Assembly: GCF_988242995.1 (NCBI RefSeq)
Contig: NZ_OZ547043.1
Direction: 5' to 3' (one strand)
DNA length: 64,000 bases
In this document: piece by piece, positions 57,110-57,596 of the stretch
Layout: every line of letters begins with the position of its first letter
Numbering within the stretch: position 1 is the stretch's first letter
Notes under the pieces: model-generated
Told to the model about the DNA's origin: nothing
Databases searched by the model: none
The model's input: the letters and a program-made list of their open reading frames with translations, nothing else
Position numbers and translations under genes: made by a program

Positions 57110-57508
57110 CGAAAAAAAACTCGTACTTTCGTACGAGCTTTTCTTTAAATATGGCGGTGAGGGGGGATTGACTCGCTTCGCTCGCCCTGCGGGCAGCCCA
57201 CTCACTGCGTTCGTGGTCTGTCCAACTGGCTGCGCCAGTTGTCGAACCCCGGTAGGGGCTTCTCATCCCCCTTGGAGTGCAATATGCGAAAAAAAAGCTC
57301 GCACTTTCGTACGAGCTCTTCTTTGAATATGGCGGTGAGGGGGGGATTGACTCGCTTCGCTCGCCCTGCGGGCAGCCCACTCACTGTGTTCGTGGTCTGT
57401 CCAACTGGCTGCGCCAGTTGTCGAACCCCGGTCGGGGCTTCTCATCCCCCTTGGAGTGCAATATGCGAAAAAAAAGCTCGCACTTTCGTACGAGCTCTTC
57501 TTTGAATA
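57110..57508. repeat. tandem ~179-bp direct repeats (2 full units plus a partial third) each containing a tRNA-Ser 3'-end fragment and a terminator hairpin, abutting serW
   Basis: TGGCGGTGAGGGGGGATT recurs at ~57152, ~57332 and 57509 (the last is the intact tRNA 3' end); each copy is preceded by the hairpin + A-run terminator gcgaaaaaaaaGCTCGCACtttcGTACGAGC; units are ~98% identical. Confidence 0.85.
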
Positions 57509-57596
57509 TGGCGGTGAGGGGGGGATTCGAACCCCCGATACGTTGCCGTATACACACTTTCCAGGCGTGCTCCTTCAGCCACTCGGACACCTCACC
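57509..57596 (-). tRNA. serW: tRNA-Ser (GGA anticodon)
   Basis: Reverse complement GGTGAGGTGTCCGAGTGGCTGAAGGAGCACGCCTGGAAAGTGTGTATACGGCAACGTATCGGGGGTTCGAATCCCCCCCTCACCGCCA; long variable arm, encoded CCA, terminator immediately downstream. Confidence 0.95.

Follow-up and report, generated by a model that had tools for sequence, protein, structure and literature searches.

Background

The closest described relatives of the array studied here are the RtT repeats (rttR, Rfam RF00391) that follow the tRNA-Tyr genes tyrT-tyrV. The family was first described as 178-bp repeats behind tyrT, reportedly by Egan and Landy in 1978, and the feature reported below is in that sense already known. To our knowledge, no function has been established for RtT since this first description, and we know of no partner RNA. 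In K-12, the rttR annotation covers 171 nt, beginning 7 nt past tyrV and closing with the unit's CCA; within the tyrT unit, a 29-aa 'protamine-like' ORF, tpr, is also annotated. Only for the tyrT repeats are the release of an RNA and any effect on the stringent response known. A modulation of this response has been proposed (Bosl & Kersten 1991, as relayed by the citing passages of PMC3318445, PMC4986893 and PMC7542023).

Direct repeats of the 3' portion of a tRNA, starting in the T-loop, are also characteristic of the tRNA att sites of tyrosine-recombinase islands and phages. One class of integrase is reported to cross over within the T-loop (Williams 2002), and serW and serX are island integration sites in EHEC. 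A third point of comparison is 3'ETS-leuZ, a by-product of tRNA transcript processing that reportedly sponges sRNAs (described, it is said, by Lalaouna et al. in 2015). It bears no sequence relationship to RtT and serves here as a working analogy for an RNA that is cut from a tRNA primary transcript and might act in trans.

Organization of the array behind serW

In the window, i.e. the whole stretch of 64,000 nt that was analysed, the tRNA-Ser(GGA) gene serW occupies positions 57509..57596 on the minus strand (ARAGORN; Rfam tRNA, 53.8 bits) and is convergent with clpA. Between the two genes, directly 3' of serW and on the same strand, lie two tandem units in head-to-tail arrangement (57152-57508). 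The tRNA-proximal RtT-type unit, unit 1, is 179 nt long (57330..57508, minus strand; repeat finding and exact parsing) and consists of a trailer, a terminator and a structured core. The distal unit 2 has the same layout over 178 nt (57152..57329, minus strand; Rfam RtT match and parsing). Exact parsing revealed three differences between them, namely two substitutions and one indel in a C run. A third copy of the trailer and terminator (57112..57151, minus strand) ends the array; it was recognized by terminator scan, by the 55-nt repeat family and by parsing. Tandem Repeats Finder reported the region as 57107-57527 with a period of 179, 2.4 copies, 97 % matches and a score of 793. A repeat search of the window returned a 179-nt pair at 99 % identity and a 55-nt block, composed of the tRNA 3' end and the terminator, which was present three times. 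An earlier sequence-only reading had described two near-identical units of ~179 bp, each with a terminator and the 3' end of tRNA-Ser, and these analyses confirmed it.

Read in the orientation of the tRNA, a unit starts with UAUUCAAAG, followed by a terminator hairpin, eight U residues and a spacer. Its middle part reads GGGGGAU-GAGAAG-CCCC-GACC-GGGGUUCGA and continues into a 72-nt insert beginning with CAACUGGCGCAGCCAGUUG, after which the unit ends in AAUCCCCCC(C)UCACCGCCA. All the following features are on the minus strand. The intrinsic terminator of unit 1, which is also that of serW, is formed by AAAGAAGAGCUCGUACGAAAGUGCGAGC and then U8 (57468..57503; fold and parsing). Segment A (GGGGGAU, 57444..57450; fold, alignment and parsing) is the complement of the 3' strand of the T-stem and of the AU in segment D. 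Segment B (GCCCC) and its GACC loop (57430..57438; alignment fold and parsing) are followed by segment C (GGGGUUCGA, 57421..57429; parsing and comparison with the tRNA sequence). Segment C, the pairing partner of B, duplicates the 5' strand of the T-stem in tRNA-Ser together with the T-loop's first half. The insert (57349..57420; fold, alignment and parsing) contains a hairpin CAACUGGC/GCCAGUUG, a second hairpin and the conserved motif GCCCGCAGGGCGAG. Segment D (57330..57348; sequence comparison and parsing) comprises the second half of the T-loop, the T-stem 3' strand, the acceptor 3' strand and GCCA. In unit 2, parsing placed the terminator at 57289-57324, segment A at 57265-57271, segment C at 57242-57250 and segment D at 57152-57169.

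Each unit closes with a repeat of the last nucleotides of serW (AAUCCCCCCCUCACCGCCA, 19 nt); the block of identity, CCA included, covers all 19 nt in unit 1 and 18 of them in unit 2. Exact parsing showed that the units had been accurately described as a T-arm fragment interrupted in the T-loop. Of the sizes proposed with that description, 18 nt for the 3' fragment held for unit 2, while unit 1 displayed 19 nt and the insert was 72 nt long, not ~75. The 5' part of a unit (A-AUGAGAA-B) is almost the reverse complement of the cognate T-arm, and its 3' part is the T-arm itself, opened by the insert.

A promoter-like site (TTGACC, 17 nt, TATAGT; 57640..57668, minus strand), matching the consensus at 10/12 positions in a scan, is located upstream of serW and is the presumed origin of any transcript entering the repeats. 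The consensus scan found no internal promoters within the units. At the other end, the third terminator copy (57112-57151) abuts a terminal CRISPR repeat. Type I-F CRISPR repeats (Rfam CRISPR-DR4) were only found at 57022-57049 and 57082-57109, and the adjacent spacer had no other match among E. coli genomes. The 179-bp units were also considered as part of this CRISPR array and discarded, being unrelated to 28-nt I-F repeats with 32-nt spacers.

Membership of the RtT family

The parallel initially drawn with the 178-bp repeats of tyrT extended beyond analogy, as the units matched the full length of the Rfam model built on those repeats. Unit 1 covered model positions 1-130 (57330-57464, 41.6 bits, E 2e-6) and unit 2 scored 38.2 bits (57152-57285, E 1.5e-5). 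Although both spanned the model, they remained under its gathering cutoff of 45 bits. The K-12 tyrT units reached 133-137 bits, in contrast to 36-49 bits for Ser-type units overall, and those Ser-type units scoring at least 45 bits carry a PGAP RtT annotation. Other Rfam matches over the region (sX4, Leu/Thr leaders, MicC) were far under threshold, driven by the tRNA or by terminators, and were rejected.

The hope of something new was not fulfilled, since an RtT sRNA is already annotated at serW in other genomes (EC21 and also BL21; RefSeq/PGAP) and at serX, the paralogue of serW, in K-12 (RefSeq). The core of unit 1 was 100 % identical to the PGAP-annotated "RtT sRNA" at serW in NZ_LR890299.1. 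For a serW unit of MSB1_3B, of the same subfamily, the core identity was 100 %, and the two-unit layout of BL21 serW is that of the window. The RtT-annotated repeats of K-12 serX also belong to this subfamily (core identity to the window units, 95.8 %). Further core identities were 97.5 % for Citrobacter serW, 96.6-97.5 % for Phytobacter and 96.6 % for Enterobacter serX; they did not split by locus, and a division into serW-type and serX-type lineages was abandoned. PGAP status was uneven, serW arrays being annotated in some genomes, half annotated in BL21 and not at all in the genome of the window. Ser-linked units lie near the threshold of a Tyr-centred model, which is why identical arrays are unevenly annotated between genomes; a rebuilt Rfam seed would mend this. 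Literature on RtT at serX was not found, nor were expression or processing data on Ser-linked units in the searchable literature.

Like the tyrT-tyrV repeats, the serW units are tandem elements of 178-179 bp placed directly 3' of a tRNA on the same strand, and each closes with the last 18-19 nt of its own tRNA, CCA encoded. Both types share the motifs GGAUGAGAA, GACY, GGUUCGA, GCCCGNAGGGCGAG and CGAGUNAAUCC, as well as the same outer A:D helix. Ser-type units differ by their cognate tRNA-Ser(GGA), to which the four T-stem-derived segments are changed to match, by a trailer that forms an intrinsic terminator where the Tyr-type trailer has none, and by their mid-insert hairpins. The array is most probably a two-copy tandem of a Ser-linked RtT subfamily, each unit forming a module of the serW transcription unit with a core of conserved structure. 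Judged from its sequence, it is the known RtT element, variable between strains, with a conserved RNA shape that is matched to its own tRNA.

Structure and conservation of the units

Unit 1 folded with a minimum free energy of -73.8 kcal/mol (z -4.9). The outer A:D helix appeared in this fold and in the RNAalifold predictions, whether these were run on Ser units only or on Tyr and Ser units together. For the combined Tyr and Ser cores, RNAalifold predicted both A:D and B:C helices, with 16 of the 36 sequences displaying GC/AU swaps. The 33 Ser-type units shared a structure of 47 pairs that were 96.9 % paired. Changes on both sides were counted at 20 pairs; shuffles, which as controls ignore phylogeny, gave 8.3 +/- 1.5 and in none of 500 cases reached this number, and slid controls attained seven at most. 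Core helices displayed 42 G-U cells against four A-C cells, an excess that favours an RNA of tRNA sense. The proposal that the repeats encode a small structured RNA thus gained support from compensatory base changes on the tRNA-sense strand.

Units were 88-93 % identical between genera, versus 70-74 % for the adjacent ghrA-dominated stretch and 87 % for clpA. They occupied orthologous positions in many genera (ghrA-serX, clpA-serW-infA and purU-tyrTV-narI) with normally diverged flanks. Their higher conservation across genera, compared with the neighbouring, mostly ghrA coding stretch, is an addition to the description of the family.

These data speak for a structured trailer RNA that is transcribed together with the tRNA and shifts in copy number by unequal recombination, and against integrase scars. 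A unit opens with the trailer and intrinsic terminator of the tRNA itself, followed by a core of ~120 nt with a conserved predicted fold. In this core, A is predicted to pair with D, and B plus GAA with C (the T-stem 5' strand copy plus UUC), while two or three hairpins lie within the 72-nt stretch between C and D. A strong hairpin with U8 precedes each unit, so that transcription of the core depends on read-through; transcripts reading through the terminator would carry the units. The end of a unit combines a tRNA-like 3' end with an AU-rich trailer, and the tRNA 3'-maturation machinery would therefore be expected to cut there. The products would be rtT-like RNAs of ~140-180 nt with a CCA terminus (...CACCGCCA), as reported for tyrT.

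Alternatively, termination itself could be the selected function, the units acting as a bidirectional terminator stack that insulates clpA/serW (and ycdU/serX) with the cores as mere passengers. Every Ser-type unit indeed brings an A-tract, a hairpin and U8, which are potentially bidirectional, and seven of the 14 pairs of the terminator helix showed compensatory change across genera. Rho-dependent termination of tyrT inside its repeats, reportedly observed by Kupper in 1978 and Rossi in 1981, counts in the same direction. This explanation nevertheless seems rather unlikely, although it fares best among the alternatives. The core outside the terminator was at least equally conserved and carried its own compensated pairs in helices 4-7, Tyr-type units keep the core without any intrinsic terminator, and a single terminator suffices at serW of K-12. 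Within the preferred explanation, too, the terminators, repeated and bidirectional, that separate clpA from the convergent serW may add a fail-safe for termination.

Relation to the cognate tRNA

A cross-genus survey was based on the motif GGATGAGAA...GAC...GTTCGA, which left the T-stem positions free. It gathered at least about 120 loci, mostly from Enterobacteriaceae, the fixed motif being blind to diverged units and to other tRNA types. Among the matches listed with an upstream tRNA on the same strand, all followed tRNA-Ser(GGA) or tRNA-Tyr(GUA). Segments B/C were CCCC/GGGG behind the former and CUUC/AAGG behind the latter, again among the matches listed, where the 3' block of identity with the tRNA measured at least 18 nt in 99 of 123 units. 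The T-stem of tRNA-Ser is CGGGG/CCCCG in Escherichia whittamii and Citrobacter sp. On2M, and their units displayed GGCGGGGAU as segment A, CCCG as segment B and CCCCGCC in segment D. Segments A, B, C and D all co-varied with the T-stem of the neighbouring tRNA in the surveyed loci. This extends the family description: the helices derive from the T-stem of the adjacent tRNA and co-evolve with it, and motif-bearing units are tied, among the matches listed, to two tRNAs, Tyr and Ser(GGA). RtT-family matches have also been reported beside tRNA-Asn and tRNA-Lys genes of Pasteurellaceae (PMC4986893).

It is a tentative and rather improbable extension that RtT modules are RNAs tailored to their own tRNA, for instance acting on tRNA-Ser(GGA) and tRNA-Tyr or on their precursors. 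A possible role would be that of an antisense or decoy for factors binding the T-arm or the CCA end, as in 3' maturation or in the sensing of uncharged tRNA by RelA. If so, the natural polymorphism of zero to four copies would set the dose.

Copy number and origin of the units

No unit was present at serW of K-12, and alignment of the spacers showed the window to equal K-12 plus exactly two units. The clpA-serW spacer measured 343 bp in NC_000913.3 versus 699 bp in the window, close to the ~350 and ~700 bp that the sequence-only reading had given, and the copy-number variation it had deduced proved real. Other E. coli carried one, two (BL21) or four units at serW. At least one unit was found at this locus in ~19 % of 5,426 complete genomes, while 2,060 of the 5,426 (38 %) harbored no megablast-detectable Ser-type unit anywhere. 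The serX array comprised three or four units among K-12 isolates. In the genome of the window, serX was linked to no intact unit but only to a truncated stub, broken inside the T-loop-like segment beside foreign-looking DNA. K-12 (none at serW, three to four at serX) and the genome of the window (two at serW, a stub at serX) differ only in locus and copy number. The genomes devoid of Ser-type units, together with the missing intact serX unit here, indicate that the element is dispensable. That E. coli strains carry zero to four copies at each of two loci is likewise added to the family description, and the natural range, as between K-12 and BL21, offers ready isogenic-like material for probing the role of RtT RNA. 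The 55-bp blocks, each combining the tRNA 3' end with the terminator, would allow units to be added or deleted through slippage or unequal homologous recombination; serW and serX being identical, exchange between these two genes is a possible further route.

Such lability (0-4 copies), with more than a third of E. coli genomes lacking the element, with frequent partial duplications and truncations and with a strong terminator ahead of each core, could also be expected of a neutral or selfish by-product of slippage at the tRNA 3' end. The RNA would then have no function, and conservation would reflect homogenisation and horizontal spread. We consider this improbable. Orthologous placement with normally diverged flanks speaks against recent transfer, homogenisation cannot yield paired compensatory substitutions or a 42:4 excess of G-U over A-C, and it cannot make segments A and B follow an altered T-stem of the tRNA either.

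Still less probable, to the point of being hardly tenable, is the suggestion of the sequence-only reading that the repeats are integrase att-site scars at a tRNA-Ser hotspot for integration; the copied tRNA 3' ends would then be leftover attL/attR sites. This explanation draws on the 18-19-nt direct repeats of the tRNA 3' end starting inside the T-loop and on the serX-linked break next to foreign-looking DNA. However, no integrase or mobile-element ORF was found in or beside the array, just short non-conserved ORFs, and no foreign cargo is bracketed by the repeats. The 160 nt between them are structured, and across genera they retain 88-93 % identity at orthologous loci, with compensatory changes; the same architecture recurs behind tyrT. 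A simple att junction would moreover leave the T-arm whole instead of split by a conserved insert, and the serX break lacks the TTCGAAT overlap expected of site-specific recombination.

A tpr-like small basic protein as the product of the units is scarcely credible: the conserved AUGAGAA motif does provide an AUG, which in the window opens an arginine-rich 60-aa ORF (57263-57445, minus strand) with a start, MRSPDRGST, resembling tpr, but this candidate was rejected on a reading frame and length that are not conserved among homologous units (in K-12 serX this AUG opens a frame of 18 aa, and insert indels, which are not multiples of 3, vary unit length from 178 to 184 nt), on an ORF that in the window crosses the CCA end and terminator into the next unit, on a purine-rich stretch that directly abuts the AUG, a distance too short for a Shine-Dalgarno sequence, and on substitutions that track base-pairing, not codon structure. 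That a unit is an additional tRNA gene, decayed or permuted, whose D, anticodon and variable arms survive as the insert, deserves as little credence: by eye, GAGUGGGCUG resembles the D-arm of tRNA-Ser and CGAGCGCCA that of tRNA-Tyr, but local alignments of the insert to the tRNA body were no better than shuffles (p = 0.5 to 0.99) or cross-controls, and the candidate was discarded.

Partial duplications of 106 bp, bounded by a 9-nt GGGGTTCGA microhomology, were encountered at two loci (L043 and L109). The 'empty' 55-nt units of these loci offered no support for a mobile insert or intron; they directly precede a full unit with identical flanks and are better explained by the 106-bp duplications.

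Array anatomy

The only tRNA found near the array (ARAGORN) was a tRNA-Ser(GGA) on the minus strand (57509-57596), identified as serW from the flanking order clpA (plus strand, ending at 56809), tRNA and infA (minus strand, 57850-58068). Tandem Repeats Finder reported an array of period 179 (57107-57527, 2.4 copies, 97% matches), and a repeat search of the window returned a 179-nt pair of 99% identity and a 55-nt block in three copies. Parsing in tRNA orientation (minus strand) gave unit 1 (57330-57508, 179 nt), unit 2 (57152-57329, 178 nt) and a closing trailer with terminator (57112-57151), the two units differing by two substitutions and one indel in a C run. 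The first 41 nt of a unit consist of UAUUCAAAG, a terminator hairpin and U8; after a 17-nt spacer come, in order, GGGGGAU (segment A), GAGAAG, CCCC (segment B), GACC and GGGGUUCGA (segment C), and the 3' part is formed by a 72-nt insert and segment D, AAUCCCCCC(C)UCACCGCCA. Segment C copies the 5' strand of the T-stem and the first half of the T-loop, while the last 19 nt of serW are identical to segment D of unit 1 and the last 18 nt to that of unit 2. The sequence-only reading, which had described a T-arm and acceptor fragment interrupted in the T-loop, was correct in all material points. A 60-aa arginine-rich ORF (57263-57445, minus strand) opens at the conserved AUGAGAA, as does tpr, a K-12 gene located within the tyrT unit.

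Family membership

Both units matched the Rfam RtT model (RF00391) over its full length (positions 1-130 of 130), in agreement with the likeness to tyrT repeats proposed earlier; their scores of 41.6 and 38.2 bits (E 2e-6 and 1.5e-5) were slightly under the gathering score of 45 bits. The four K-12 tyrT-tyrV units, on which the family is based, reached 133-137 bits. Ser-linked units (BL21, comparison stretch L128 1186-1499, and those of stretches L005 and L003) scored 36-49 bits, on either side of the cutoff, so that annotation is patchy and missing from the window's genome; single arrays mix annotated units with near-identical unannotated neighbours. PGAP labels 'RtT sRNA' at serW in EC21, MSB1_3B, 504239 and BL21, and the core of window unit 1 is 100% identical to that of one annotated MSB1_3B unit. 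The array represents the Ser(GGA)-linked version of the RtT repeats, an element already known and new neither as a kind nor as a member; other RefSeq genomes have it annotated at serW, and K-12 at serX, a paralogue of serW. What is added here is modest, namely co-variation with the cognate T-stem, strand-specific structural conservation and a polymorphism of 0-4 copies, which together bring the long-open question of RtT function closer to reach.

The K-12 tyrT-tyrV spacer (L004 1864-1995; 132.9 bits) is itself an RtT unit, which places the tRNA-Tyr gene duplication within the repeat array. The unit in the Pseudocitrobacter tyrosine-tRNA spacer (L109 ~2975-3025) displayed an internal deletion.

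Copy number at serW and serX

As the sequence-only reading had stated, the clpA-serW spacer is shorter in K-12 (343 bp in NC_000913.3 versus 699 bp in the window). Pairwise alignment attributed the whole difference to the two units, the K-12 tRNA running directly into one terminator with no unit at serW. The suspected copy-number variation was also borne out in other E. coli, with one unit in spans of ~473 bp, two in BL21, as in the window, and four in strain 504239. E. coli isolate SC418 (NZ_LR778147.1, sediment) matches the window at 100% identity. A 651-nt query with serW-specific flanks was covered to at least 80% in 1,016 of 5,426 complete genomes; since serX arrays reach just 76-77% coverage, ~19% of genomes carry at least one unit at serW. 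The unit core was present somewhere in 3,366 of the 5,426 E. coli genomes, 38% having no detectable core.

The serX gene of K-12, identical to serW, is followed by three full units (L005 2023-2565, NC_000913.3) with no feature annotated there, and by four annotated RtT units in another MG1655 assembly (L006 943-1622, NZ_CP097882.1), so that K-12 MG1655 assemblies disagree on unit number. The window's genome mirrors K-12, with two units at serW and only a stub at serX. In NZ_LR778147.1 this stub (L127 30934-31113) comprises a terminator followed by ~45 nt from the start of an RtT unit, broken after ...CCGGGGT within the T-loop-like segment; a DUF2726 gene comes next, and the K-12 block pga-ycdT-ymdE-ycdU is absent.

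A 55-bp block (tRNA 3' end plus terminator) stands on both sides of every unit and is the evident target for unequal recombination or slippage; either process would change unit number, in keeping with the integer copy differences, those among K-12 isolates included. Two 55-nt 'empty' units, in which the T-arm copy is uninterrupted and the 72-nt insert missing, were found, at a Ser locus of E. coli SCPM-O-B-8794 (L043 7739-7793) and a Tyr locus of Pseudocitrobacter vendiensis (L109 3199-3253). Both immediately precede a full unit whose flanks are identical and would be explained most simply as 106-bp duplications via the 9-nt identity of segment C with the tRNA T-arm.

Matching to cognate tRNAs

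Units of the tyrT type and the Ser type share the motifs GGAUGAGAA, GACY, GGUUCGA, GCCCGNAGGGCGAG and CGAGUNAAUCC. In four short segments, the differences reproduce exactly those between the T-stems of their tRNAs: segment A is GGGGAAGGAU in Tyr-type and GGGGGGAU in Ser-type units, B is CUUC and CCCC, C is AAGG and GGGG, and D is AUCCUUCCCC and AUCCCCCC, respectively. A scan of a single genome from each species, using a motif in which the B and C positions were free, returned at least ~120 stretches, almost all from Enterobacteriaceae, with others in Serratia, Acerihabitans, Sodalis and Edaphovirga and a few chance matches elsewhere. Among the 199 matches listed, all those with a same-strand tRNA up to 1.2 kb upstream follow either tRNA-Ser(GGA), where B/C is CCCC/GGGG or departs from it by one base, or tRNA-Tyr(GUA), where B/C is CUUC/AAGG or a variant. 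Escherichia whittamii and Citrobacter sp. On2M displayed a tRNA-Ser T-stem of CGGGG/CCCCG, and their units had GGCGGGGAU as A, CCCG as B, CGGG(G) as C and CCCCGCC as D; in one strain with a GAGGG/CCCUC T-stem, segment B was CCCUC. These independent T-stem changes confirm the link between unit and tRNA. By inspection, A-AUGAGAA-B resembles the reverse complement of the entire T-arm (Tyr example GGGGAAGGAUGAGAACCUUC versus GGGGGAAGGAUUCGAACCUUC).

Array positions were orthologous across the surveyed genomes. The matches listed included at least 22 loci at ghrA-serX, at least 37 at purU-tyrTV-narI and at least four, all from Citrobacter, at clpA-serW-infA.

Structural conservation

The minimum free energy fold of one unit (-73.8 kcal/mol, z -4.9) comprised the terminator, an outer helix formed by A and D (A:D) and a hairpin formed by B and C (B:C) that includes pairing of GAA with UUC in the copied T-loop half, with insert hairpins between. 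RNAalifold again predicted the A:D and B:C helices in 36 Tyr plus Ser cores, with GC/AU exchanges. In a non-redundant set of 33 Ser-type units drawn from many genera, pairing was 96.9% over 47 pairs. Both-side changes occurred in 20 pairs, versus 8.3 +/- 1.5 in shuffles that ignore phylogeny (0 of 500 reaching 20) and at most seven in slid controls. The survey motif fixed part of helix 3; most of the signal lay in helices 1, 4, 5 and 6, all free of motif constraint. Core helices displayed 42 G-U cells versus four A-C cells, which argues for constraint on the tRNA-sense RNA, and the structured RNA suggested earlier is supported by this excess and by the compensatory changes. Between E. coli and Enterobacter, Klebsiella or Citrobacter, whole units were 88-93% identical, compared with 70-74% for the adjacent stretch (mostly ghrA coding) and 87% for clpA.

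Possible function and alternative explanations

Transcripts from a putative promoter-like site of serW (57640-57668, by scan) would read through into the units. As every unit ends with the 3' end of the tRNA and an AU-rich trailer, the enzymes of tRNA 3' maturation would be expected to cleave at this point, yielding RNAs with a terminal CCA. The process would run parallel to that of the 171-nt rtT RNA of tyrT, whose K-12 annotation begins 7 nt downstream of tyrV and ends at the CCA of the unit, and for which release by processing and a possible stringent-response effect are ascribed to Bosl & Kersten 1991 where PMC3318445, PMC4986893 and PMC7542023 cite that work. For Ser-type units this model is weakened by the strong terminator before each core and by the 38% of E. 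coli genomes without such units. It is plausible that the units contribute as a stack of terminators working in both directions where genes converge, but this leaves the conserved core without explanation. Neutral slippage as the origin of the array cannot account for the compensatory changes, nor for the way in which A and B follow altered T-stems.

Integrase att-site scars, also raised by the sequence-only reading, were rejected: no recombinase or foreign cargo was present in or beside the array, its interior is a conserved, structured sequence, and the T-arm copy is split, not continuous. Protein coding was dismissed since the AUGAGAA start gives 60 aa in the window versus 18 aa in K-12 serX, the frame is not conserved in sister units and indels among units are not multiples of three; a decayed tRNA copy was likewise discarded, the insert aligning with the tRNA body no better than shuffles.

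Neighbouring elements

At its last terminator, the serW array adjoins the terminal repeat of an orphan type I-F CRISPR array (57022-57109) composed of a CRISPR-DR4 repeat (57022-57049, 50.1 bits), a 32-nt spacer (57050-57081) differing from that of K-12, and a degenerate CRISPR-DR4 repeat (57082-57109). The spacer was found once in each of 379 of the 5,426 E. coli genomes, with a second match in none of these. Orphan arrays at this locus with anti-cas spacers were reportedly described by Almendros in 2016. Elsewhere in the window, the RybB sRNA (17030-17108, minus strand) scored 104.1 bits, far over the cutoff; it is ordinary and has no relation to the repeats. Plasmid NZ_AP027855.1 (104.9 kb) carries a 'tRNA-OTHER' feature (29534-29635) that matches the 3' half of serW with its terminator at 94% identity and may be an attP-like tRNA fragment.
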